Shown: one piece after another, positions 35,985 through 48,057 of the stretch
Numbering within the stretch: the first letter of the stretch is position 1
Layout: each line of letters opens with the position of its first letter
Source of the DNA: a virus
Taxonomy: Duplodnaviria; Caudoviricetes
Direction: 5' to 3' (one strand)
Length of the DNA stretch: 52,651 nucleotides
IMG/VR virus record: IMGVR_UViG_3300025508_000025
Location: 1 to 52,651 of that record
Made by a program: the position numbers and the translations under genes
The notes under the pieces: model-generated
What the model was told of the DNA's origin: nothing
The model's database searches: none
Seen by the model: the letters and a program-made list of their open reading frames with translations, nothing else

Positions 35985-36016
35985 TTATTAACAGTTTATC
36001 CACAGGGTTATCCACA
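35985..36016 (+). promoter_or_regulatory. Tandem DnaA boxes (putative origin or regulatory site)
   Basis: TTATCCACA at 35996-36004 and 36008-36016; TTATTAACA at 35985-35993. Confidence 0.7.
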
Positions 36017-36247
36017 GCCGAATACCAGTAAATAAAATATATTTTCAAAAAAAAACTGGGATGGTAAGAAATTTACTGCAACCCATCAAAGTTTATATAC
36101 CAGTAAATATATTTTTTTTTCAGCAGGGTAAACAAAAATCCCCCCCCTCTTCTACAACCCCAGTAAATTCTATATACCAGTAAATATTTTTTCTCCCTGT
36201 AGAAAAACACAGCCGTTGGATGCCCTTGAAACACCTTATTTTGAGCC

Positions 36248-36290
36248 AAAAAAAAAGGCGATAGCCACTAATTAAAGTAGCTACCGCCTT
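36248..36290 (-). terminator. Intrinsic terminator ending the early operon
   Basis: AGGCGGUAGCUACU-loop-AGUGGCUAUCGCCU then U-run, just after the stop at 36298. Confidence 0.75.
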
Positions 36291-36297
36291 ATTTATT

Positions 36298-36627
36298 TTA
36301 TCCCTCCCTTGATTTTCTAATGAAGCCAAGATGCCTATTTACATGGAAACCCCTTCGTTGATACCATGTTCTAAGCTGAACAACATTTAAACCTTTTCTT
36401 CCCAGTCGTTGAATTTGACCAGTGATTTCAAGGTTATGTTTATCTGCCAATTTAACCAACCAATCCAAACCTTTAGAACCTAATCCAGTTCCCATGTTTA
36501 AAGATATGATTGCACTTAGTCTTATGCCTTTGAGAGTAGGATTCAATTCAAAAGTTGCCACGCTATCTAAAACATATAGATGCCCTACTTTAATTGTTTC
36601 CGATTCTAATTCTTCCCAAAAACTCAT
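36298..36627 (-). CDS. GNAT-like acetyltransferase
   Basis: GTGLGSKGLDWL (acetyl-CoA motif A-like), LRTWYQRRGF; likely start MSFWEE. Confidence 0.55.
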   Translation of the reverse strand: MSFWEELESETIKVGHLYVLDSVATFELNPTLKGIRLSAIISLNMGTGLGSKGLDWLVKLADKHNLEITGQIQRLGRKGLNVVQLRTWYQRRGFHVNRHLGFIRKSREG

Positions 36628-36629
36628 GA

Positions 36630-36812
36630 TTAATCTCTGCAAAAGATCAGGACTGATAAACAAAAAGCTGTTCCCAATCCACTATAGAAGATCACAAAGT
36701 AATCTGCCCTAGCTATCCATTCTTGCGAAAGTAATCCCTCTCCCCAAGTAAAACCTAGGAAGAGAAATGCAATAGCACCCATTGATGCAATGATAGTTAA
36801 GAATCTATTCAT
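36630..36812 (-). CDS. Small two-TM membrane protein
   Basis: GGAGG SD; two hydrophobic segments. Confidence 0.55.
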   Translation of the reverse strand: MNRFLTIIASMGAIAFLFLGFTWGEGLLSQEWIARADYFVIFYSGLGTAFCLSVLIFCRD

Positions 36813-36949
36813 GATAATTCCTCCTCATCAATAAAGAATTTGATATGAACAAATCCTCCACTCATAGATGAGATTGAATATCTATAATCGCAAGTTTCCA
36901 ACCATGCAATAAAAGACTTTAGATGCTTCGTCTGAATACTAGCACTCAT
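36809..36949 (-). CDS. Small protein (46 aa, not in ORF track)
   Basis: GAGGT SD, ATGA overlaps; FIAWLETC. Confidence 0.55.
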   Translation of the reverse strand: MSASIQTKHLKSFIAWLETCDYRYSISSMSGGFVHIKFFIDEEELS

Positions 36950-37092
36950 GATTGCACCTCCTCTTCGATGTCAGACAACCATTCATCAAAATCTTGTCTT
37001 AATCCGTCTGGCATATCATTAAGTAATATTTCCATTTTAGGATTGTCATTCCATTGAATTAATATTTGAGTTGCTACTATTGTTCTGCTCAT
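36946..37092 (-). CDS. Small acidic protein (48 aa, not in ORF track)
   Basis: GAGGT SD, ATGA overlaps at both ends. Confidence 0.55.
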   Translation of the reverse strand: MSRTIVATQILIQWNDNPKMEILLNDMPDGLRQDFDEWLSDIEEEVQS

Positions 37093-37451
37093 GATTGCAC
37101 CTCGTGATTCACAGTCAAAGTTATCAGATACTTTTTATCCTGAATATCTTTACATAGATTTATTACATCTAGATTTGTATAAAGACTCTCTCGCATAGCA
37201 AAAGAATCTAAAAACAAATCAGACTCATTCCTAGCAAAATAAATAGCATTGAGTATTAAACTCAATACATCCACCTCACTCATTGATTTATCTTTTGGAA
37301 CACCATTAGGATATTTCAAAAAACATGAGACTAACATCCAATCAGCCTTGCTCATGATATTTGGCAAATCTCCTATAGGAGTTTTACCTTTCATATCAAT
37401 CCCATATTTGCTTCCCATTTCTGAAAAGACTTTATCTCGTTCTTTATTCAT
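37089..37451 (-). CDS. Hypothetical early protein
   Basis: GGAGGT SD. Confidence 0.6.
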   Translation of the reverse strand: MNKERDKVFSEMGSKYGIDMKGKTPIGDLPNIMSKADWMLVSCFLKYPNGVPKDKSMSEVDVLSLILNAIYFARNESDLFLDSFAMRESLYTNLDVINLCKDIQDKKYLITLTVNHEVQS

Positions 37452-37484
37452 AATTTACCTCCAAGTAATATTTGAATAGTTAAG

Positions 37485-37540
37485 TTTCTGTTTCGACCTT
37501 TTAGGTCTCATCAGGGAAAAAACACATTTTCCGACAGAAA
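37485..37540 (-). ncRNA. Hammerhead ribozyme HH1 (type III, canonical)
   Basis: UUUCUG-UC^GGAAAA-ugugUU-UUUUCC-CUGAUGA-GACC-uaaaa-GGUC-GAAA-CAGAAA; GUC cut 37533/37532. Confidence 0.93.
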
Positions 37541-37584
37541 TCGCCAAAATAGGCTTCATGTACTCGCACCAGTGAACGAATCGT

Positions 37585-37623
37585 GGGAGGGTCAAGGGTC
37601 TTGCAACCCCTGAAACACCCCCC
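37585..37623 (-). other. GC-rich GNRA-capped hairpin between vWA gene and HH1
   Basis: UCAGGGGUU-GCAA-GACCCUUGA extended by G-run/CCCUCCC; no U-tail. Confidence 0.6.
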
Positions 37624-37637
37624 TCGCATATCGCATC

Positions 37638-39071
37638 CTAGTTATAGAAGTCAGCAGTTTCAACATAGACCACTTCGCCAAAGGCTAGGTTTTCTGAATA
37701 AGTGCTTTTATCTGTGACTGCCCAAAAGACAGGTACATCAGGCTCGACTTCAGGACTCACTTCACCCCAGCCGTCAGTGAAGTAAACAATAGCTTGAACA
37801 TCATCCACATCATCTGAATGATCATTGAACAAGTTAAATGGAGGGTCGAACAATGTTCCACCACCACCCCTCACCTGTAATTCAAGATCATCGCCTTGAT
37901 CTAACTCATAGATATCCCACCACTCGCCTTGTTGATTCTTACGAACAACAGTATCGCAGTAGCACACCCTGATCTTATCAAGACCACAATCCTCAGCCAT
38001 TGCCTGAATCTCAGTAGCGAACATATTCAATTCGTATTGAGAAACAGAACCACTGGTATCAATCATGATAGCTAACTCGCCACCTTGCGGAGACTTTGCT
38101 TTGCTAGGTAAATTAATACCTCGATGTTGATGCCTTTTGTTTAGCCTAGACCAAGTATTCTCTTCAGAGATAGAGGACTGCAAAAGATCATTAAGTTGTT
38201 CTCTCCAATCCACTTGCACTTCTTGATTCGCATCAGCAGAACCAAGACCACCTGAAGAACCAGTGCCACTCATAGCAATCTCTAACTTTTCAGCTAAAGA
38301 AATTGCTCTCTGAATTTCACCTTTAACTTCTTGCATTTCTGCATCAGTCAATGGTTTCCCTTCATCGTTAGTAGCATCCCATACTTCGCCAATTGCAGAG
38401 GGAATCGAATCCCAATCTGTGCCTGTTTCAACACCCTCTCCAGTGCTTTCATCAGATTCAGATTCGCCAATACCAGTATCGGAAATATTTCCTGTACCAG
38501 TCTCAGATAATTCTTCTCCCTCTTCATCAGTTGCTTCGCTTCCACCTTGGCTTTGAGCATCCTCTTCTTCAGAGGACTCTTCACCTTTTGGTTTCTGCTG
38601 ATTAATCTGATCAATCGCTTCTTCCAAGGCTTCTTCATCTTTTACCAAGATTGCATAAACCTTTTCAGCAGTCATGCCCTTGTACTTATGATCTAGTAAA
38701 CCGCCCAAAGGCAATTCAAGTTTTAAATCCCAGTACAAATAAGCATTGATCACATAGTCACAAGCGATATTCCAAATTTTAGGATGTCGCTTTCCTCTTC
38801 TCAAAGGATGTTCATAAACAACATGAAGTGCTTCATGAACAAGTACACCCTGTAATTCAGGCTCACTCAGACCCAAGACAAAAGGCGGAAAGTAATAAAT
38901 TACTTTTCCGTCAGTTGCCATTGTGTCGCATCTAGACTGATCAACTTCCACTAAATTAAGATGTAAGAGCATGGATGCCATGCCCACATTACCTTTCATT
39001 AGTTTTGCTCTCGCCTTAACTATGTAGTCATGAGCCAATTGTGGCTCTTTTACAGTTGCTAAATTAGTCAT
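37638..39071 (-). CDS. Metallopeptidase-vWA protein (DUF2201-like)
   Basis: TMATDG, LVHEALH, WNIACD, MIDAS IDTSGS, GGGGT, YFTDGWG; start MTNLAT with GGAGG SD. Confidence 0.85.
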   Translation of the reverse strand: MTNLATVKEPQLAHDYIVKARAKLMKGNVGMASMLLHLNLVEVDQSRCDTMATDGKVIYYFPPFVLGLSEPELQGVLVHEALHVVYEHPLRRGKRHPKIWNIACDYVINAYLYWDLKLELPLGGLLDHKYKGMTAEKVYAILVKDEEALEEAIDQINQQKPKGEESSEEEDAQSQGGSEATDEEGEELSETGTGNISDTGIGESESDESTGEGVETGTDWDSIPSAIGEVWDATNDEGKPLTDAEMQEVKGEIQRAISLAEKLEIAMSGTGSSGGLGSADANQEVQVDWREQLNDLLQSSISEENTWSRLNKRHQHRGINLPSKAKSPQGGELAIMIDTSGSVSQYELNMFATEIQAMAEDCGLDKIRVCYCDTVVRKNQQGEWWDIYELDQGDDLELQVRGGGGTLFDPPFNLFNDHSDDVDDVQAIVYFTDGWGEVSPEVEPDVPVFWAVTDKSTYSENLAFGEVVYVETADFYN

Positions 39072-40053
39072 GCTTTTTTCCTCCAAAGGCTTTTCCAAGA
39101 AAACCACCTTTAAGAGAATCAGCAGACTCTTCCAACTTCTTAGCTAAGTCTTTTCGCTTCTGTTCAGCTAAAGCATCATCTTCTCTCAGAGAGTCAATGC
39201 CATTGTTGTATCCATTAAACGTAGAAACAACGCTAACCAGTTTTTGATGAGCATCAGCAATATCTTGATCGTTACCTAAAATATCAGCGTTGATATTTGG
39301 TAAAGACCCAGTTAATTTTTCCAGTGCTTTAAAACTGGAAGCATTAAAGAAACCTTTTTGTTTCTGCTTGGGGTCATATTCCCTCAATTTTTTTGCTAAA
39401 TGATCAGTCTGTTCAAGGACAGCATCAACAGTGGTTTTAAGAACATTCTTAATATTATTGTTGATTCTATTCTTGACATCATTTTCTATCTTAGACCTTA
39501 ACTTCTCTGATACATTCAAACGAATGTCAGAGCCATATTGAGGAACAGTAGATATCTCAAATTCAAACTTAAACTTTCGTCTAAGTGAATCGAAGTCAGG
39601 GTAATCACATTCGTTGAATGCTTTACCTAAATTTCTTTTGGCTTGTTCCATTTTTTGTGGATAGCTTTTAAGAAACTCATCTACTTCTTTATCCCAAATC
39701 TGCTTTGCATCATCCACTTGATTCTGCAATGACTCTAACTGTGAGTTAGGGCATAAACGCCACCCACTCACAACCTTGTCATCCATATCAGTAGAATTAT
39801 CTGCCCAAGGCAAAGTCATCGGATAGTAATAATCATTCCTAAACTTATTTAAAATGTGGCGAAAATATTTGTTAATATCTTCTCCATAAATATGCTTAGA
39901 AACACCCAGTAATCTCTCGCTAGATACTTCAGTATCTATCGCTAAATCACGCTTTAACCTTTTATCTGTTCTGATTCCGCTAGGATGCTTCGCAGTCATG
40001 CGAACCAACACAGCATTCTCAGACAGAGTATTAGTCAATTTTTCTTTATCCAT
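39064..40053 (-). CDS. DUF3150-like protein
   Basis: TLPW...GWRL, DYP...LRRKFKF; lies between AAA and vWA genes; start MDKEK. Confidence 0.55.
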   Translation of the reverse strand: MDKEKLTNTLSENAVLVRMTAKHPSGIRTDKRLKRDLAIDTEVSSERLLGVSKHIYGEDINKYFRHILNKFRNDYYYPMTLPWADNSTDMDDKVVSGWRLCPNSQLESLQNQVDDAKQIWDKEVDEFLKSYPQKMEQAKRNLGKAFNECDYPDFDSLRRKFKFEFEISTVPQYGSDIRLNVSEKLRSKIENDVKNRINNNIKNVLKTTVDAVLEQTDHLAKKLREYDPKQKQKGFFNASSFKALEKLTGSLPNINADILGNDQDIADAHQKLVSVVSTFNGYNNGIDSLREDDALAEQKRKDLAKKLEESADSLKGGFLGKAFGGKKHD

Positions 40054-40083
40054 AATAAGAACCTCCATTCTTTATTAGAAAAT

Positions 40084-40138
40084 TGCTGTTTCGATCTTAA
40101 TGATCTCTTCAGGTGAGAAAAAAAATCTCACGACAGCA
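40084..40138 (-). ncRNA. Hammerhead ribozyme HH2 (type III, canonical)
   Basis: UGCUG-UC^GUGAGA-U7-UCUCAC-CUGAAGA-GAUC-auuaa-GAUC-GAAA-CAGCA; GUC cut 40132/40131. Confidence 0.93.
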
Positions 40139-40189
40139 GAGCAGAAAATATATTTAACCAGTAAATATAAATTCTGCCCTTGCTCAGAC

Positions 40190-41239
40190 CTAGACTTCTA
40201 AGTCTTGATTCTTGATCTTGAATTCTCCATATCTTGCAGAATCCACAATATCGCTTCTTGCTCCAACAAGCGATCTCACAAAGAAAATTCCAAACTCAGG
40301 GGTAGGAAATTTCTCAATGTAATCAAGAGCATTAGCAAAGTAGTCATGCAAGTTGCTATCACTAGCTTCTTTTATAACACTCACTAATGCACAGACAGTT
40401 GCATACATCAGACCACCACTATCAACAACCTCGACATCTCCACCCTCACAAATTTCTTGCAAGTTGGGAACATCATTTTTCAGTGATAGGAATGACATAA
40501 ACTCGATACTAGCAGTTTCACCTACATCGCCTTGCACAAGTAATTGCACAATTTCTTTAGGTGGATTGCATTTAAGAGTATCGCTTAACCTCACCCATGA
40601 TCTAGGACTAGGCTGTGGGGTAGTAACCTTGGCATTAAAGTCATGCAACCACTCAGGCTGAAAACTTATGAACCCCAAAATTTCAGGACAAATATCATTC
40701 TTACTTGCCCATGCTAACCAATCATCAGGACTATGCTCAAAATCGACCATAGTGCATCTATCTGATACATGACTAGGAAGTTTATTGCTTCCTGCTCTAT
40801 CAGTTGCTCTATTACCTGCACAGATTGTTCTCCACCCTTTAGGCAAAGAATAGTCTCCTATCCTTCCCTCATACAGCAATTGCCCACATACAGCCTGAAC
40901 AGAATTCGATGCTTGGGCATACTCATCAAAGAATAAAATCCCTTCACCACTTACAGGAAGATTGCCCAAAAAGGCTCTCTTCTGTTCATTCGCATCATTG
41001 ATATAAGGCAAACCACCTAAATCAACAGACTCATATAACGACAGTCTGAAATCAATAAATCCAAACTCATTTTGAGTAGGATTAATTTTATCCACGACTA
41101 CCTTCCTATCCATAGCAATGTCATCGACATATGCTCGAACAATTGCACTTTTTCCAATACCTGTTCCCCCTAAAAGGAATGGAGTATTAGACCCTTTTAA
41201 AACTGCCTTAATCGACAGTAATGCTTGACTTGGTTTCAT
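40190..41239 (-). CDS. MoxR-like AAA+ ATPase
   Basis: Walker A GGTGIGKS, Walker B ILFFDE, CAGNR, PSPRSW; start MKPSQ. Confidence 0.85.
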   Translation of the reverse strand: MKPSQALLSIKAVLKGSNTPFLLGGTGIGKSAIVRAYVDDIAMDRKVVVDKINPTQNEFGFIDFRLSLYESVDLGGLPYINDANEQKRAFLGNLPVSGEGILFFDEYAQASNSVQAVCGQLLYEGRIGDYSLPKGWRTICAGNRATDRAGSNKLPSHVSDRCTMVDFEHSPDDWLAWASKNDICPEILGFISFQPEWLHDFNAKVTTPQPSPRSWVRLSDTLKCNPPKEIVQLLVQGDVGETASIEFMSFLSLKNDVPNLQEICEGGDVEVVDSGGLMYATVCALVSVIKEASDSNLHDYFANALDYIEKFPTPEFGIFFVRSLVGARSDIVDSARYGEFKIKNQDLEV

Positions 41240-41310
41240 ATTAATAACCTCCAAAGTTTTTATGATTCAAGTTAGTTTCAGCTACCAATAAATATTATTT
41301 ACCAGTAACT

Positions 41311-41372
41311 ACCAATACTGGATAACAATTTGCTATCCAGTTTCATAGCATTTCAGCTAATCTTCAGTTGGT
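41311..41372 (-). ncRNA. Hammerhead ribozyme HH3 (type I, U10.1-U11.1 variant)
   Basis: ACCAA-CUGAAGA-UUAGC-ugaaau-GCUAU-GAAA-CUGGAUAGC-aaauu-GUUAUCCAG-UA^UUGGU; cut 41316/41315. Confidence 0.85.
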
Positions 41373-41714
41373 TTAAGTAATGGTGTTAGAGACAAATTCA
41401 TCATTTGGATTTTTCCAACAATCTCTAGACATAAGACCATTTTCTAAAATGTATTCCAAATGCTTAGTGGCATTTTTAATGTTATTAAACATTCTTGCCC
41501 TTGCTCCACTTTCATCACATAGATATTCATTATCTTTTGCTAAAAAATAATAACTTCTATTTTCTCCATACAATTCTTTTATTAATTCATATTCATTCCA
41601 AGAATAAATATGAACATCAATCTCATTATGTGGTTCTACTATTCGCTTGTTATCTCTCCAAACTTTCCACTGTTTAGAGATAACTTTTTTATTAGACCAT
41701 TTAATTTTATCCAT
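41373..41714 (-). CDS. Hypothetical early protein
   Basis: GGAGG SD; flanked by hammerheads. Confidence 0.65.
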   Translation of the reverse strand: MDKIKWSNKKVISKQWKVWRDNKRIVEPHNEIDVHIYSWNEYELIKELYGENRSYYFLAKDNEYLCDESGARARMFNNIKNATKHLEYILENGLMSRDCWKNPNDEFVSNTIT

Positions 41715-41743
41715 AATTTTTGACCCTCCAAGGTCAGTTAATT

Positions 41744-41804
41744 ACCAATAACAGACAGCACTCGCTATCTGTTTTCATAGCATCTCAGCTAATCTTCAGT
41801 TGGC
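41744..41804 (-). ncRNA. Hammerhead ribozyme HH4 (type I, U10.1-U11.1 variant)
   Basis: GCCAA-CUGAAGA-UUAGC-ugagau-GCUAU-GAAA-ACAGAUAGC-gagu-GCUGUCUGU-UA^UUGGU; cut 41749/41748; stem III covaries with HH3. Confidence 0.85.
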
Positions 41805-42059
41805 TTAAAAAGTGTTTTTATCCCATTCAGGATTAACATTTTTTTCATCCCAATCCATATCCAATTGATTCAATAAGAATATTGTTGGCAAATAATCGTC
41901 ATGTTGATTACCCCAATCTTCCTCATAGGTTTCCAATTTTCTTTTGTATATGTCTAATGCTTTCCATAAAATCAGACTTGTATCTTCATTTACAGTTAGC
42001 TGTTTAGTCATAATTACCTTTGGCGTTTTCATACCAATTTGTTTATTTTCTTTTTGCAT
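41805..42059 (-). CDS. Hypothetical early protein (84 aa)
   Basis: Start MQKENK at 42059 with GGAGG SD. Confidence 0.6.
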   Translation of the reverse strand: MQKENKQIGMKTPKVIMTKQLTVNEDTSLILWKALDIYKRKLETYEEDWGNQHDDYLPTIFLLNQLDMDWDEKNVNPEWDKNTF

Positions 42060-42090
42060 AATTTTTGACCCTCCAAGGTCATGTTTAATT

Positions 42091-42176
42091 ACCAAGATTC
42101 CCTCGAAAGGGTCAGGGCATTACTGCTACCTGTTTTAAAATTTCGACTGGATTCTCGCCAGTCATCATCAGTTGGT
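42091..42176 (-). ncRNA. Hammerhead ribozyme HH5 (type I, branched stem III)
   Basis: ACCAA-CUGAUGA-u-GACUGG-cgagaau-CCAGUC-GAAA-UU-[two hairpins]-AA-UC^UUGGU; cut 42096/42095. Confidence 0.75.
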
Positions 42177-42593
42177 TTACCCTGTATTTTTTATAGGGTC
42201 ATCAAGGAAAACATCTCCATGCACAGAACGAATAACATAATTAAGATTTTCGTTTATCGTTATTTGTCTATCGTTAATGAATAAGATTTGATTTCCCTTG
42301 ATCTGTTTAAGATAAACAGAATCAGATGCAAAAACATAGGAAAAAATAGCGTTTAATCTCTCCCTTGTTGTGACTGTATCCCACCCACACATTGAAAAAC
42401 ATAAGTGAATATTGTTACTTAAATTTTCGCTAGGATGATTGTTCTCGAACCATGCAATTTTATTGTCATGCAAGAAAACCCCTTGCTGTTTTTTGCTCGA
42501 CCATTCTGATATTGGTCGAATTCTAGTATTGCCCATTATTTTATTTACATTTTCAGTAAATGCTTCAGCAATTTCTTTTGATACTTTTCTCAT
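42177..42593 (-). CDS. Hypothetical protein, first gene of early operon
   Basis: GGAGGT SD; LHDNKIA, GWDTVTTRERLNA motif. Confidence 0.65.
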   Translation of the reverse strand: MRKVSKEIAEAFTENVNKIMGNTRIRPISEWSSKKQQGVFLHDNKIAWFENNHPSENLSNNIHLCFSMCGWDTVTTRERLNAIFSYVFASDSVYLKQIKGNQILFINDRQITINENLNYVIRSVHGDVFLDDPIKNTG

Positions 42594-42613
42594 AAGTTAA
42601 ACCTCCAAGGTTT

Positions 42614-42665
42614 TGTTTCTTGAACCCCAAAATAGGATTCTCTTCAGCCTGTTAATTCAGGGACA
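42614..42665 (-). ncRNA. Hammerhead ribozyme HH6 (type III, variant)
   Basis: UG-UC^CCUG-aauuaa-CAGG-CUGAAGA-GAAUCCUA-uuu-UGGGGUUC-aa-GAAA-CA; AA insertion before GAAA; cut 42662/42661. Confidence 0.6.
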
Positions 42666-42911
42666 GTTGGAGGACTGCCTAGGACATACTGCAGTAGCAA
42701 GTATCGGTGTATCGTGAACGCCTAAGTAGTTTCCATTTCACTACATCTCAGGGAACGCTTTTTGTTTTGATGCTTCTCTTTATCATCGAGGGTAAATCTA
42801 GAGACCCTCAGCTAAGTTAGTATCTTAATAAGTAATACAGCTACCTAGCAGTCATATATGGCTGTTCTATAAAGACCTCCTTTTTGGTTTAATATTCGTT
42901 GTCATGTGCAT

Positions 42912-42941
42912 ACCTTAACACCATGAATATCATCAATGCAA
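42912..42941 (-). promoter_or_regulatory. Sigma70-like early promoter
   Basis: TTGCAT-18 bp-TAAGGT with extended -10 TG. Confidence 0.55.
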
Positions 42942-43005
42942 CATCTTATTAGATTGCAGTATGTGAGCATTACGAAACTCTGCTTACTGGTAGATAATAT
43001 TAAGC

Positions 43006-43503
43006 ATGGATAAAGACAAAACTCAGGACGAAAAACCCACGCTTAAATTGGTCAAGGATAAGACCAAGCTAACCATGAAACAGAGAGCCTTTTGTGATCT
43101 CATCATCAAGGGCAAGTTGGGAAGTCAGATCGAATGCTATATGGAAGTCTATGATGTAGCTCTAACCAAGACAGGGAAGATACCTAAACACGCCCACGTT
43201 GATTGCAGTAGGTTAATGGCAAACCCTAGTATCAGCCTAACTATAGCTAATGGATTGAAACGCTTAGAGGTTAATGCAGTAGCTTCCACTACTCGAACAA
43301 GGAGTTACGTTCTTGAACAGCTTATGAGAGAGAGCAAGGAAGCAGACAGTGACAGCACTAGAGTCAGGGCATTAGAGTTACTAGGCAAGACAGTGAACCT
43401 ATTCAGCGACACCTTGGAGATCAAGGAGAGCAGAACCAGTGATGACATAGAGAGTGAGATTGAGCAGAAGATAGAAGCATTGTTGAGAGAATCAGCAGAA
43501 TAG
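43006..43503 (+). CDS. terS: Terminase small subunit
   Basis: LTMKQRAFC, RVRALELLGK...LF; upstream of terL. Confidence 0.75.
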   Translation: MDKDKTQDEKPTLKLVKDKTKLTMKQRAFCDLIIKGKLGSQIECYMEVYDVALTKTGKIPKHAHVDCSRLMANPSISLTIANGLKRLEVNAVASTTRTRSYVLEQLMRESKEADSDSTRVRALELLGKTVNLFSDTLEIKESRTSDDIESEIEQKIEALLRESAE

Positions 43504-43712
43504 ACCCCCCTTTTAATGCTGTGATCTAGAGCAGAGACAGACCCCCCTACACCCCTTTACAGATGCAAGTACCTGCTATCATATATACATAGTGTTTTGC
43601 ACATAATATGACATAATTTTATAGACCCCCCCTATTATGTATTGCATTTTGCTATCTTTCTTTGCCATATACCCTGTTTTTCTAGGTAAACACTGTGTTT
43701 CATACCCCCCCC
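43502..43712. repeat. Four A(G/T)AC6-8 C-tract repeats
   Basis: At 43502, 43539, 43623 and 43702. Confidence 0.6.
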
Positions 43713-43895
43713 ATACTATATTTCAAAATTTGAGGGTTGCTTTTTATGTGAAGCCGTGCAATATTGTATAATCTGTAGATACATATACCTAGTAACCAGT
43801 AATAACTTAATGAGTGCCTACCTATGTTTACTTATTAAGTTTTTTTATTTAAGAGCTACTACCTAGTAGGTATATACTAGATAGGGAGTTACTGT

Positions 43896-44084
43896 ATGTA
43901 TGAGTTTATAGGAAGTTTAATAAGTGATTTTTTCTTTTGGTGCGTAGATGTTTTAGTATTCATTGGAGAAGTCACAGGTATGGGTTATGCATTAGCTAAT
44001 ATAGTTATATTTGTAATACTTCAACCAGCTTTGATTTTGCTTTTCTTTGTTTTATGGAGAAAAGAAATAAAAAAGAATGAATAA
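43896..44084 (+). CDS. Small membrane protein
   Basis: GGGAG SD; hydrophobic; overlaps terL start. Confidence 0.55.
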   Translation: MYEFIGSLISDFFFWCVDVLVFIGEVTGMGYALANIVIFVILQPALILLFFVLWRKEIKKNE

Positions 44085-45573
44085 GAATGTACTAAGTAAA
44101 GTTAAAAACTTATCTGCTGATCAAAAGCAGGAATTGCTTTCCCTATTAGAAGAATTAGAAAAAGCCAAAGGCAGAGAGAAATGCCATGAAGACTTTATGA
44201 CCTTTGTTGGGGAGATGTGGTCAGCTTTTATTCATGGTAGACATCATGAGATCATGGCGGATGCTTTTGAGAGAGTCGCTAAAGGCGATCTGAAGCGTTT
44301 AATTATTAATATGCCACCTCGACATACCAAGAGTGAGTTCGCTTCGTACCTCCTCCCTGCGTGGTTCTTAGGTAAATACCCAGATAAGAAAATTATCCAG
44401 ACTGCCCATACTGCTGAACTAGCGGTTGGCTTTGGTAGGAAGGTTAGGAACTTAGTCAACAGTGCCGATTACAAAGCTGTGTTTCCCAATGTTAGTTTGC
44501 AGTCAGATTCAAAAGCTGCTGGAAGATGGAACACAAACCAAGGCGGAGATTACTTTGCGATTGGTGTAGGTGGTGCGGTAACTGGTAAAGGTGCTGATCT
44601 ACTTATTATTGACGATCCCCATTCCGAACAAGAGGGAGCTTCTTCAGACATCAATGTATTCAATCGTACCTATGAATGGTACACCTCTGGTCCTAGACAG
44701 CGTTTGCAACCGAATGGTGCAATTGTGGTGGTCATGACTAGATGGCACAACAAAGATTTAACAGGTCAAGTAGTCGATGCTAGTGTAAAGCGTGGCGGTG
44801 CTGACCAGTGGGAAGTCATAGAGCTTCCTGCAATCATGCCTTCTGGAAACCCCTTGTGGGCAGAATTCTGGAAGATGGAAGAGTTACAGGCTTTGAAAGC
44901 CGAGCTACCCAACAGTAAATGGATGGCACAATATCAGCAAGACCCAACCTCTGAAGAAGGAGCTTTGGTTAAGCGTGAGTGGTGGCAAGTGTGGGAAAAC
45001 AGAGAGCCACCTGACTGTGAGTTTATTATCCAGTCATGGGATACAGCTTTCATGAAAAATCAAAGAGCTGACTTTTCTGCTTGTACTACATGGGGAGTTT
45101 TCTATAAAGAAGATGACGATGGGATGATTTCTCCTTTTGTTATTCTGTTAGATGCTTACAAAGAACGATTAGAGTTTCCTGATCTTAAAACAAGAGCCAT
45201 GGAAAAATACAACGAATACAAGCCAGATGCCTTCATTGTAGAAGCTAAGGCTGCTGGTATGCCCTTAATATTTGAATTACGAGCTATGGGTATACCTGTA
45301 CAAGAATACACACCAAGCAGGGGTAACGATAAAATTTCAAGAGTTAATGCAGTCTCTGATCTTTTTGCTTCAGGAGTTATTTATGCTCCTTCGACAAGAT
45401 GGGCAGAAGAAGTGGTAGAAGAATTTGCAGGTTTTCCTAATATGGAACATGACGATTTAGTTGATAGCTCTACTCAAGCTCTGTTAAGATTCAGACAAGG
45501 TGGTTTTATTCCATTACATTCAGACGAAGAGGATGAGCCTTTGGAACATAATCGTACCGCAAATTATTACTAG
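44077..45573 (+). CDS. terL: Terminase large subunit
   Basis: INMPPRHTKS, LIIDDP, VMTRWH, QSWDTA, HDDLVDS. Confidence 0.95.
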   Translation: MNKNVLSKVKNLSADQKQELLSLLEELEKAKGREKCHEDFMTFVGEMWSAFIHGRHHEIMADAFERVAKGDLKRLIINMPPRHTKSEFASYLLPAWFLGKYPDKKIIQTAHTAELAVGFGRKVRNLVNSADYKAVFPNVSLQSDSKAAGRWNTNQGGDYFAIGVGGAVTGKGADLLIIDDPHSEQEGASSDINVFNRTYEWYTSGPRQRLQPNGAIVVVMTRWHNKDLTGQVVDASVKRGGADQWEVIELPAIMPSGNPLWAEFWKMEELQALKAELPNSKWMAQYQQDPTSEEGALVKREWWQVWENREPPDCEFIIQSWDTAFMKNQRADFSACTTWGVFYKEDDDGMISPFVILLDAYKERLEFPDLKTRAMEKYNEYKPDAFIVEAKAAGMPLIFELRAMGIPVQEYTPSRGNDKISRVNAVSDLFASGVIYAPSTRWAEEVVEEFAGFPNMEHDDLVDSSTQALLRFRQGGFIPLHSDEEDEPLEHNRTANYY

Positions 45574-45582
45574 GAGATTCAA

Positions 45583-48057
45583 TTGGCTATAGAAAGACAA
45601 CAAGCTACACCTGAAGATGGAACAATAGAACAAGACCCTCAAGAACAAGGATTAAGTATTTCTATTGAAAATCCAGACTCAGTAGCAATTGAAACTGAAG
45701 ATGGTGGAATGATTATTGACTTTGATCCTAATGCTAAAGAAATAGGTGACATAGAATTTGATTCTAATCTAGCAGATCATATAGATGATGGTATTTTGCA
45801 AGAGCTAGGTTCTAAACTTGTAGGTGACTACAACGGAGACAAAGACTCACGATCAGAGTGGGAAGAAACTTACACGAAAGGTTTAGATCAACTAGGACTC
45901 AAGATAGAAGAAAGAACAACCCCTTGGTCAGGAGCTTGTGGTGTATTTCATCCAATGCTTAGTGAAGCTGTTATACGCTTTCAATCCCAATCAATTACAG
46001 AAATGTTTCCTGCTGCTGGACCAGTCAGAACTAAAATAGTAGGAAAGATTACAGAAGAAAAAGAAAAACAATCGCAGAGAGTAGAAGATTACTTAAACTA
46101 CTTGCTGACACATGAGATGTCAGAGTACAGAACTGAAACAGAAAAGATGTTATTTTCATTGCCATTGGCAGGTTCTGCATTTAGAAAAGTTTACTTTGAT
46201 CCTAGCTTAGATAGACCGAGTTCTATCTTTGTACCAGCAGAAGATGTTGTGGTTAACTATGGAGCAAGTGATTTAGAAACTTGTGAAAGAGCTACCCATG
46301 TTATGCGTAAATCTTCTAATGTAGTTAGAAAAATGCAAGTTAATGGTTTCTATAGAGACATAGATATTCCTGATGGCTCACAAAAAATTTCTGATATCAA
46401 TAAAAAGTATGACGAAATTACTGGTGAATCAGATACTTATAACTACGATCAAAGCCATACAATATTAGAAATGCAGGTAGATTTAGACCTTGAAGGGTTT
46501 GAAGATACCGATGACTCAGGAAAAGAAACAGGTATAGCTATACCTTATGTTGTTACTATTGATTTTCCAAGTGGCATTATTCTTAGCATACGCAGAAACT
46601 ATTATGAAGATGACACTAAAAAGTTAAGAAGAATGCACTTTGTACATTATCAATACTTACCAGGATTAGGTTTCTATGGGTTTGGTTTGATACATATGGT
46701 AGGAGGATTAGCCAAGTCAGCTACATCCATACTAAGACAATTAGTAGATGCAGGTACTTTAAGTAATTTACCTGGTGGTTTAAAAGCTAGAGGACTCAGA
46801 ATTAAGGGAGATGATACTCCTATCATGCCTGGAGAATTTAGAGATGTTGATGTACCAGGTGGTGCTATTAGAGACAACATTACATTCTTACCATACAAAG
46901 AACCATCGTCTACATTATTTGCATTGCTAGGAAACATAGTAGAAGAAGGCAGAAGGTTTGCCAGTATGTCAGACATGAAAGTATCTGATATGAGCAACAA
47001 TGCACCTGTTGGAACTACACTAGCATTGCTAGAAAGAAATCAAAAAGTTATGAGTGCTGTGCAATCTAGACTTCACGCTTCAATGCGTAAAGAGTTTGAT
47101 ATATTAGTTGGCATTGTAAAAGACTTTACAGACCCTTCTTATCCTTATGAAACAGATGAAGGAGAAGATATTAAAGCAGAAGATTTTGATAACAGAGTAG
47201 ATGTACTACCAGTATCTGATCCTAATGCAGCAACAATGGCTCAAAGAATTATGCAATATCAAGCAGCTATGCAACTAGCTCAGTCTGCTCCTGATATGTA
47301 TAACTTACCTGAACTACATAGACAGATGCTTAATGTATTAGGCATTGAAGATGTAGAAGATATCATTCCTGATATTGATGATGTTAAATCAGTTGACCCA
47401 GTTACTGCAGTACAAAATATTATTAATGGAAAACCAGTCAAAGCATTCATTGATCAAGATCATGAAGCACACATTGCTGTAGTTACATCAGCACAGCAAG
47501 ACCCACAAATACAACAACTTGTAGGTCAGAGTCCAAATGCACCTTCAATACTAGCTGCAGGTTCAGCTTATATTAATGAGCATTTATCAATGCAATACAG
47601 AAAAGAAGTTGAAGAAGAAATGGGCGTAGAGTTACCACCAGAAGGTGAGCCATTACCAGCAGATGTTGAGAAACGTATATCAAGCCTTGTAGCAGAAGCA
47701 GCCAAGCGAGTATTAGGTACTTCACAAGCTCAAGCTGAACAACAAAGAGTACAAGAGCAACAAAAAGACCCACTCATTCAAGCTAAAGAAAAAGAAGTCG
47801 CAATTAAAGAAGCACAAGCAAAAGCTAAAATAGAAATAGATGAAGGCAGATTATTACTTGATGCTACTAAAGCTGCATCAAATAAACAAATACAAGAAGC
47901 TAGGCTTAAACAAGAACAAGAAATAGCTGGTGTTAAAATAGGACAGCAAGTTGCTAGTGATTTGATAGCACAAGAAACTTTAAAAACAAAACAATCAATA
48001 GAAGATTTTAAAACAGGTGTTGACATAGCTAATAATATGATTAAAGATAGCGATTAG
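45583..48057 (+). CDS. Portal protein
   Basis: Follows terL; 824 aa; GFYGFGLIH; TTG start with AGGAG SD. Confidence 0.85.
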   Translation: MAIERQQATPEDGTIEQDPQEQGLSISIENPDSVAIETEDGGMIIDFDPNAKEIGDIEFDSNLADHIDDGILQELGSKLVGDYNGDKDSRSEWEETYTKGLDQLGLKIEERTTPWSGACGVFHPMLSEAVIRFQSQSITEMFPAAGPVRTKIVGKITEEKEKQSQRVEDYLNYLLTHEMSEYRTETEKMLFSLPLAGSAFRKVYFDPSLDRPSSIFVPAEDVVVNYGASDLETCERATHVMRKSSNVVRKMQVNGFYRDIDIPDGSQKISDINKKYDEITGESDTYNYDQSHTILEMQVDLDLEGFEDTDDSGKETGIAIPYVVTIDFPSGIILSIRRNYYEDDTKKLRRMHFVHYQYLPGLGFYGFGLIHMVGGLAKSATSILRQLVDAGTLSNLPGGLKARGLRIKGDDTPIMPGEFRDVDVPGGAIRDNITFLPYKEPSSTLFALLGNIVEEGRRFASMSDMKVSDMSNNAPVGTTLALLERNQKVMSAVQSRLHASMRKEFDILVGIVKDFTDPSYPYETDEGEDIKAEDFDNRVDVLPVSDPNAATMAQRIMQYQAAMQLAQSAPDMYNLPELHRQMLNVLGIEDVEDIIPDIDDVKSVDPVTAVQNIINGKPVKAFIDQDHEAHIAVVTSAQQDPQIQQLVGQSPNAPSILAAGSAYINEHLSMQYRKEVEEEMGVELPPEGEPLPADVEKRISSLVAEAAKRVLGTSQAQAEQQRVQEQQKDPLIQAKEKEVAIKEAQAKAKIEIDEGRLLLDATKAASNKQIQEARLKQEQEIAGVKIGQQVASDLIAQETLKTKQSIEDFKTGVDIANNMIKDSD

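Follow-up and report, generated by a model that had tools for sequence, protein, structure and literature searches.

The minus strand of a 52,651-base virus contig (Duplodnaviria; Caudoviricetes; IMG/VR record IMGVR_UViG_3300025508_000025), which was analysed over its full length and is called the window here, carries three small RNA elements, HH3, HH4 and HH5. These are probably copies of one modular type I hammerhead ribozyme that marks gene junctions in an accessory-gene region and carries its own stop codon. On this strand, TAA ends three open reading frames (ORFs) at positions 42177, 41805 and 41373. Each TAA abuts RCCAA-CUGANGA, which is followed by stem II, GAAA, stem III, UH and UUGGU, giving a complete type I hammerhead core. 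A previous inspection of the letters (the sequence-only reading) had described UAA-RCCAA-CUGANGA with zero spacing and a UUGGU closure, and this was found to be correct at its coordinates when read on the minus strand; the anatomy it assigned, a type I topology with the UAA flush against a 5-base-pair (bp) stem I, was likewise borne out. The string CCAACTGANGA occurs exactly three times in the window, at HH3, HH4 and HH5, and the looser pattern CTGANGA..GAAA..TTGG gave 7 window matches against 0.71 expected, a number reached in 0 of 100 shuffles.

HH5 occupies 42091..42179 (-) and consists of TAA (42179-42177), ACCAA (42176-42172), CUGAUGA (42171-42165), stem II and stem III, and UUGGU (42095-42091). 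Its stem II (42164-42145) contains an extra U and a 6-bp stem with the loop CGAGAAU, followed by GAA at 42144-42142, and its stem III extends from A15.1 at 42141 to U16.1 at 42097 with two hairpins. C17 is located at 42096, and the predicted cut falls between 42096 and 42095. HH4 occupies 41744..41807 (-), with TAA at 41807-41805, GCCAA at 41804-41800, CUGAAGA at 41799-41793 and UUGGU at 41748-41744. Its stem II (41792-41777) reads UUAGC-UGAGAU-GCUAU with U.U at 10.1-11.1 and is followed by GAA (41776-41774), a 10-bp stem III (41773-41750) and A17 at 41749, so that cleavage is predicted between 41749 and 41748. HH3, at 41311..41375 (-), is built similarly from TAA (41375-41373), ACCAA (41372-41368), CUGAAGA (41367-41361), stem II UUAGC-UGAAAU-GCUAU (41360-41345), GAA (41344-41342), an 11-bp stem III (41341-41317), A17 at 41316 and UUGGU (41315-41311), with a predicted cut between 41316 and 41315. 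The stem III of HH5 (42097-42141, -) can also be described as a short closing helix bearing two hairpins, one of whose loops contains GUAA, and a two-hairpin stem III of this kind recurs with compensatory changes in eight of the related loci introduced below (L024, L046, L148, L169, L063, L087, L126 and L020).

The core strand C3-U4-G5-A6-N7-G8-A9 is present in all three elements, as CUGAAGA in HH3 and HH4 and as CUGAUGA in HH5; GAAA is present in each, and H17 is A, A and C in HH3, HH4 and HH5, respectively. When each element was folded alone, the minimum free energy structures of HH3 and HH4 were the three-way hammerhead, with stems II and III capped and stem I open. Their fold z values were -4.39 and -3.87, and 0 of 200 shuffles were equally stable. 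HH5, whose stem III includes the two extra hairpins, gave a z of -1.87, with 8 of 200 shuffles equally stable.

Relatives were collected from viral contigs by two motif-based scans, of which the first required CCAA...UUGGU and the second used the commonest stem II sequence only. Together they yielded at least 173 loci; the family sample was drawn from among the matches listed by these scans, and all proportions given below describe this sample, not all phage hammerheads. A descriptor that is blind to the sequence upstream of stem I was then applied. It demanded the core and GAAA, five pairs in stem I, four or more pairs in each of stems II and III with A-U closing the latter, and any nucleotide but G at H17. 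In the window and 1.55 Mb of related loci it gave 110 matches, in 83 distinct contexts, against 0 matches in the reversed sequences. Four matches lying in long ORFs (gaps -161, -143, -60 and 57) were removed as chance matches, and the window copies (L121-L123) were excluded from the family counts. Grouping by similarity of the upstream ORF tail resulted in 66 groups and 68 representatives, and 30 of the 37 short-stem representatives formed the alignment for a covariance model, R1, seven having been misaligned by MAFFT and dropped (L083 twice, L096, L127, L135:8345, L155 and L132).

In the 30 aligned relatives, 11 of 11 invariant core positions are kept, N7 alone varies in the C3-A9 strand, and A15.1-U16.1 is A-U in every one. 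Standard pairs fill 95.3% of the pair cells against 72.3% in shuffles (0 of 500 reached 95.3%), and both-side changes occur in 12 of 17 pairs (stem I 2/5, stem II 4/5, stem III 6/7), counts that lean toward structure as the aligned rows were pre-selected by the pairing-requiring descriptor. Sliding the pairing partners abolished the covariation signal. When the whole window was searched with R1, three sites only were reported, HH3 at 79 bits, HH4 at 75.1 bits and HH5 at 16.9 bits (E 0.11), the first two of which score highly by construction, as the near-identical contig L172 is in the model alignment. Retention of the core while three stems change by compensatory substitutions is expected of selection on the fold. 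It argues against the view that the elements are relics which no longer cleave and which persist as intergenic repeats, recombination sites or stable 3' hairpins, a view that would account for the missing Rfam match, for the non-canonical U.U at 10.1-11.1 and extra U after A9, and for one copy with C in place of U4. As members with U.U and members with G-C at 10.1-11.1 also occupy equivalent places after orthologous ORFs, we regard the relic explanation as highly improbable.

Several observations weigh against assigning the three elements to working hammerheads, in addition to the motif-based sampling described above. The Rfam hammerhead models reported none of HH3, HH4 and HH5 between 36000 and 48000, even at E <= 10; at the gathering level they gave 0 hammerhead matches in the window and in 10 related loci, and only sub-threshold matches in 4 loci. 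The 10.1-11.1 pair is usually G-C and lies outside the catalytic core nucleotides, and it is a non-standard U.U in HH3 and HH4. An extra or unpaired U follows A9 in all three elements, facing a U in HH3 and HH4 and remaining unpaired before a G-C pair in HH5. With the downstream leader added to the folded sequence, HH4 and HH5 were no longer predicted to form stem I at minimum free energy. The hammerhead in three related loci, L181-L183, has C for U4. Finally, among marine metatranscriptome contigs from four runs, one spans HH3 uncut, although RNA ends are not visible in assembled contigs and carried-over DNA may be its source; another ends near the HH5 cut, and a further contig of the same study continues there with different letters, which says nothing on cleavage or expression. 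The irregular pair is shared widely, since 10.1-11.1 is G-C in 7 and non-standard in 23 of the 30 relatives, making the latter the commonest variant. By this pair HH3 and HH4 are variant hammerheads. The screen of Perreault et al. 2011 (PMC3088659) rejected candidates mispaired at 10.1-11.1, that is, the arrangement found in 23/30 here, which may be the reason why this type I group is absent from the Rfam library. From the comparison with relatives, we consider HH3, HH4 and HH5 to be real hammerhead variants with predicted self-cleavage.

In L181-L183 the altered element stands directly after the orthologue of the ORF upstream of HH5 and reads CCGAUGA. The U4-to-C change also abolishes the core UGA, with the TAA and the remaining fold kept. 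Such a copy is possibly inactivated or attenuated, and some copies may be decaying.

Whether the stop codon is a neighbour of the ribozyme or a part of it was evaluated on the 68 representatives with positions numbered relative to C3, which places the U of the stop triplet preceding the 5-bp stem I at -8. Between -20 and -9 the relative entropy stays at background, never above 0.17 bits, and it rises sharply at -8. T is present at -8 in 50/68, A or G at -7 in 54 and 6, and A at -6 in 66/68, following 66 unrelated upstream ORF tails. This pattern is kept where the triplet is not used: among the 27 representatives whose ORF stops elsewhere and is in a frame that leaves the choice of triplet free, positions -8 to -6 are UAA or UGA in 16 (UAA 10, UGA 6) against a background of 0.074 per position, and a stop triplet starts at -9, -8 or -7 in 23. 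A used stop at -8 is UAA in 31/31. These results indicate that the conserved unit begins at the stop triplet, which is the first triplet of the hammerhead and not its neighbour, and that the spacing looks like zero since the repeated unit includes the stop codon. Three origins of the embedded stop may be considered: the triplet touches loop II in the RNA, a stop inside the unit is itself selected, or the module copies simply descend from one ancestor.

The first of these would make the stop codon a by-product of an RNA constraint, in which the purines at -7 and -6 dock with a GARA-type loop II. Two purine-rich positions beside background-level ones from -9 upstream are consistent with this, and so are the ten ORFs that read through the -8 triplet, which keep A at -6 in 10/10 and A at -7 in 7/10, the triplet being CAA, GAA or AAA in 7/10. 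Of the members with a GARA-type loop II, 56/59 have RA at -7/-6, compared with 3/9 of those with other loops, an association that is confounded by the common descent of subfamilies. Furthermore, -7/-6 lie just beyond the 5-bp stem I and opposite a stem II of 4-5 bp, which we take to be the site of the known contact between a stem I bulge and loop II in well-studied type I hammerheads. Against such a role, the NAA codons may be recent one-letter derivatives of UAA, and an extension of stem I by UAA:UUA pairing is not general. The extension, formed after an AR bulge (UUGGU-AA-UUA), was considered and rejected as a common feature; it fits the window, but in 39/68 relatives the place next to stem I is taken by a hairpin. 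On balance, a purely structural origin of the stop is possible, and we would rather bet against it.

Stop placement was next compared across the relatives, taking for each match the longest upstream ORF, with ORFs called by length only. The stop is the triplet at -8 in 31/68, all of them UAA, a codon that makes up 184 of the 381 stops in the related loci overall. It is the core UGA (U4-G5-A6, +1) in 10, the UAG within stem II (UUAGC, +8) in 9, and a triplet 1 nucleotide (nt) into stem I in 3; in 13 it lies 1 to 46 nt farther upstream, and two calls are unreliable (L131, cut by the contig end, and L024, with two equally long 31-codon ORFs). The sequence-only reading had proposed a check of the spacing in homologues, and the outcome is divided: zero spacing is the commonest arrangement, but it is not fixed. 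In one orthologous ORF family, the protein ends as ...IPEKAY at the core UGA in five contigs and as ...IPR at UAA(-8) in the sixth, which is a natural shift of the stop beside an unaltered ribozyme. Since the placement differs within one family, termination at the exact -8 nucleotide is not required, and the movement of stops among sites during evolution implies that exact placement is not critical.

The stops nevertheless keep close to the ribozyme, as the start of the stop codon falls within -12 to +8 of C3 in 60/68. The triplet at -8 is in frame with the core UGA, and 41/68 upstream ORFs use that frame (p = 5e-6 against one third, a binomial figure that overstates independence because many module copies are related by descent). 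ORFs in the third frame could read on to a UGA in loop II, but 0 of 12 reliable cases do so, and they stop 1 to 46 nt before -8. When a stop codon occupies the A site, the ribosome shields some twelve nucleotides beyond it. By such textbook footprints, a ribosome terminating at -8, +1 or +8 must sit on the 5' strand of stem I and on some or all of CUGANGA, so that folding and termination would be mutually exclusive at any moment in most relatives. This is the ground for the main idea of the sequence-only reading, a dependence of cleavage on upstream translation. In its full form, selection would have placed the stop where a terminating ribosome keeps stem I and the core from closing, and cleavage would be restricted to times when the upstream ORF is not translated or to the time after the ribosome has left. 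The positions of the 60 stops, the strong frame preference and the avoidance of loop II by third-frame ORFs all fit this idea. However, the stop moves 9 or 16 nt into the ribozyme in 19/68, also within one orthologous family, and its location 1 to 46 nt upstream in 13 cases argues against a precise device. The -8 triplet is retained in 16/27 cases where no ribosome would stop there, and dense packing of phage genes predicts the same abutment with no regulatory role. Cleavage gated by translation in this manner is hence unlikely, though the near absence of a spacer and the frame bias keep a looser coupling to translation possible.

With HH3, HH4 and HH5 taken as stop-carrying modules at gene junctions, the following sequence of events is proposed. 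The module would extend from the stop triplet U-8 R-7 A-6 through the 5-bp stem I, the CUGANGA/GAAA core and stems II and III to UUGGU. The genes would be transcribed as one RNA, in which each module would cut itself between H17 and U1.1, 57 to 82 nt beyond the stop, a distance that follows from the type I topology. The upstream message would then retain its stop codon, and almost all of the ribozyme would form its structured 3' end, terminating in a 2',3'-cyclic phosphate. The message beyond the cut would begin with a 5'-OH and the leader UUGGU, i.e., five letters of the ribozyme, often followed by a hairpin and then by a ribosome binding site. On the gene strand, no promoter-like or terminator-like site was found in the three spacers, which is consistent with the division of a single long transcript into one-gene pieces. 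Processing of long phage transcripts into single-gene mRNAs by clustered hammerheads was proposed by Perreault et al. 2011 (PMC3088659).

The part of each message after the cut shows a recurrent organization. In 39/68 relatives, a covarying hairpin of at least 6 bp is located immediately after stem I and is followed by an A-rich spacer, GGAGG and the start codon; the start codon lies a median of 54 nt beyond the cut. In the window, AAUUAA(A)C and a small Shine-Dalgarno hairpin follow both HH4 and HH5. The hairpin GACC-UUGGAG-GGUC at 41722..41735 (-), seen in predicted folds, presents the Shine-Dalgarno GGAGG of the ORF between HH4 and HH3, and an identical hairpin stands before the ORF between HH5 and HH4 at about 42067-42080. 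The identical leader is kept in the related loci L178 and L179 before a different ORF. Two further interactions were considered and rejected. Masking of the downstream Shine-Dalgarno by RCCAA, suggested by the resemblance of UUGGAGG to UUGGU, shows no covariation, as relatives with a CCUA/UAGG stem I have AUGGAGG and not UAGGAGG; kissing of loop II with the loop of the downstream hairpin gave, by eye, at most 3-4 inconsistent pairs. Folds computed in longer contexts suggest competing structures with the leader and the start codon.

Four ORFs border the modules in the window, all on the minus strand. The one upstream of HH5 (42177..42593) encodes 138 amino acids (aa) and matches Pfam Kyano_Gp96 (PF23790, E 7.9e-10). 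Between HH5 and HH4 is an 84-aa ORF at 41805..42059 with its true ATG at 42059-42057 (the open frame spans 41805..42095) and a 36-nt leader after the HH5 cut. Between HH4 and HH3 is a 113-aa ORF at 41373..41714 with its ATG at 41714 and a 34-nt leader after the HH4 cut. Neither of these two belongs to a known family. Downstream of HH3 is a 349-aa ORF (40190..41239, ATG 41239) that has a P-loop-like motif, gave no Pfam match and is read as an AAA-type ATPase; its leader of 76 nt contains a long AU-rich hairpin. The arms of this hairpin are two copies of UAUUGGUAG, found 27 nt apart in 41270-41320 (-), the leader following HH3, and L181 has a different sequence at the same place that is able to form a similar hairpin. 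For the 113-aa and 84-aa ORFs, relatives were found in one near-identical contig only, so the spacing of orthologues was comparable for the 138-aa ORF alone.

The 138-aa ORF was found in six related loci, L178-L183, at 77-90% identity and with 3 distinct tail-plus-ribozyme sequences. In 6/6 of these it is followed by TAA-ACCAA-C(U/C)GA(U/C)GA, but stems II and III and the next gene differ, and the 84-aa ORF is absent from all six. L178 and L180 share blocks of similarity with HH5 and HH4 whose first letter is the T of TAA (42179 and 41807) and which end at UUGGU. The HH5-like blocks show 94-96% identity from 42179 to 42086 or 42091, the HH5-like body is joined directly to the ATPase leader at 41315, and other small ORFs are present. 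In L181-L183, the 138-aa ORF is followed by one hammerhead and then by the ATPase homologue, with both small ORFs absent, and in L181 and L182 an HH5-like ribozyme is located upstream, not downstream, of the 138-aa ORF. A repeated intergenic unit that starts at the upstream stop codon thus bounds the variable ORFs. Such boundaries suggest that the hammerhead modules are probably also sites of homologous recombination, by which small ORFs would be shuffled.

Clusters of this kind have been described for phages and prophages. In two reports (PMC3088659; de la Pena et al. 2017, PMC6155905), hammerheads are grouped at short distances on either side of individual small, non-conserved ORFs, as observed here, where the cluster includes three type I elements, one type III at 37485-37540 and one variant type III upstream of the 138-aa ORF. 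Type I phage hammerheads and hammerhead clusters flanking small ORFs are therefore already known. What appears to be new is a large subfamily that is invisible to the library models, with an embedded stop, alternative internal stops, a following hairpin and boundaries that match gene shuffling; the stop-first layout is common to dozens of related phages. Stop codons receive 0 mentions in the main text of PMC3088659 and in a 2019 review (PMC6765202), and no text linking phage hammerheads to the upstream stop codon was found, the supplements, which may hold such sequences, being outside this coverage.

The closest library model is Rfam RF03152 (RAGATH-1), which resembles the present elements in its type I topology, 5-bp stem I, long stem III and A-rich stretch 5' of stem I. 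With this model (gathering 56.3), L046 scored 29.6 bits and L009 25.2 bits, and HH3, HH4 and HH5 gave no match at E <= 10. The conserved 5' hairpin of RF03152 has no counterpart here, where the upstream part is unrelated coding sequence. The full-length type I hammerhead of the Schistosoma type shares the topology, the short proximal stem I and the hexaloop on a stem II of 4-5 bp. We take the unpaired nucleotides just beyond its proximal stem I to be the expected partner of loop II. In the present elements, the stop codon of the upstream gene fills that position and a hairpin often follows the 3' strand, which leaves the loop contact putative; they are also found in phage mRNA, in contrast to the eukaryotic satellite DNA of the Schistosoma type.

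A different likeness is seen with the PeSL cassettes of T4-type phages. According to Arbiol et al. 2010 (PMC2839356), these likewise begin with the upstream stop codon and flank ORFans, and both PeSLs and hammerhead modules are found where related phages differ by insertions, deletions or replacements. PeSLs mediate the shuffling of ORFans, for which recombination products (mini-circles) were shown in that report. The PeSL is, as described there, a sigma-70-type early promoter combined with a terminator stem-loop and acts at transcription, whereas no such site was found in the three minus-strand spacers. The hammerhead modules are hence not PeSLs, and the comparison concerns only how the two would work. 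The order of hammerhead, hairpin and ribosome binding site in the 39/68 relatives is that of the synthetic insulator RiboJ, whose cut leaves all downstream messages with one common 5' leader that is short and structured (PMC6206723). RiboJ was engineered from a type III ribozyme and stands behind a promoter, in contrast to the natural type I element after a coding region, a position and topology by which nearly the whole ribozyme would stay on the upstream fragment.

A combined gene-junction device can also be envisaged, in which a unit of about 65-90 nt would supply stops, a ribosome-gated ribozyme, a defined and often hairpin-capped 5' end, and recombination homology. In the common variant, its stops would serve all frames, with -8 and core +1 in one frame, +8 of stem II in the second and +12 of loop II in the third. 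This joint reading is speculative and we hold it to be doubtful. If true, the device would do at the level of RNA processing what the PeSL cassettes do in T4-type phages, and its cleavage would be coupled to the completion of translation upstream. The role of phage hammerheads is still described as an open question in the text of two reviews (PMC6155905, PMC6765202). The present modules offer a concrete anatomy, namely a start at the stop codon, three defined internal stop sites, a hairpin and ribosome binding site after the cut, and boundaries that equal gene-content differences. This makes two ideas testable, an interplay of termination with self-cleavage and the use of ribozyme cassettes as gene-shuffling units. 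Because this type I group is missed by the Rfam models and by a screening rule on 10.1-11.1, ribozyme censuses of viromes may undercount.

The virus contig is estimated to be 89% complete, and the DNA of the window recurs in freshwater/aquatic metagenome runs, 14 of which contain at least 0.84 of the sampled words. A blastn search of 41200-42660 against a phage collection gave no match, and a scan of bacterial and archaeal genome contigs for the exact stem II motif gave 0 matches and no host or prophage link. Around the modules, the minus strand from 37638 to 41239 encodes the P-loop ATPase-like ORF, a protein with a weak DUF3150 match and a DUF2201 metallopeptidase/VWA protein. The plus strand at 43006-48057 encodes the small and large terminase subunits, the two strands diverging from about 42700-43000.

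Two other hammerheads of the cluster are of type III. A canonical one is located at 37485-37540 (-), with 47.5 bits against the Rfam gathering value of 48.5 (E 4.7e-08), and is all that Rfam reported in 36000-48000 at E <= 10. The DUF2201/VWA gene (37638..39107) stops 97 nt before this element, and the next ORF starts 33 nt beyond it, at 37451; in contrast to the type I copies, the element thus does not abut a stop codon. At about 42602-42673 (-), upstream of the 138-aa ORF, is a variant element resembling type III hammerheads, which consists of stem I CCUG-AAUUAA-CAGG, CUGAAGA, stem II and an AA inserted before GAAAC. Its stem III is composed of 3 bp plus a 7-bp duplex of CCUCCAA with the Shine-Dalgarno UUGGAGG of the 138-aa gene, and the predicted cut after GUC would part this anti-Shine-Dalgarno strand from its target. 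The element occurs in three relatives, in which stem I covaries (CUCG/CGAG, GCUG/CAGC) and the AA insert and Shine-Dalgarno duplex are kept. The same place before the orthologous 138-aa ORF is occupied by a canonical type III hammerhead in L180 and by a type I hammerhead in L178 and L179.

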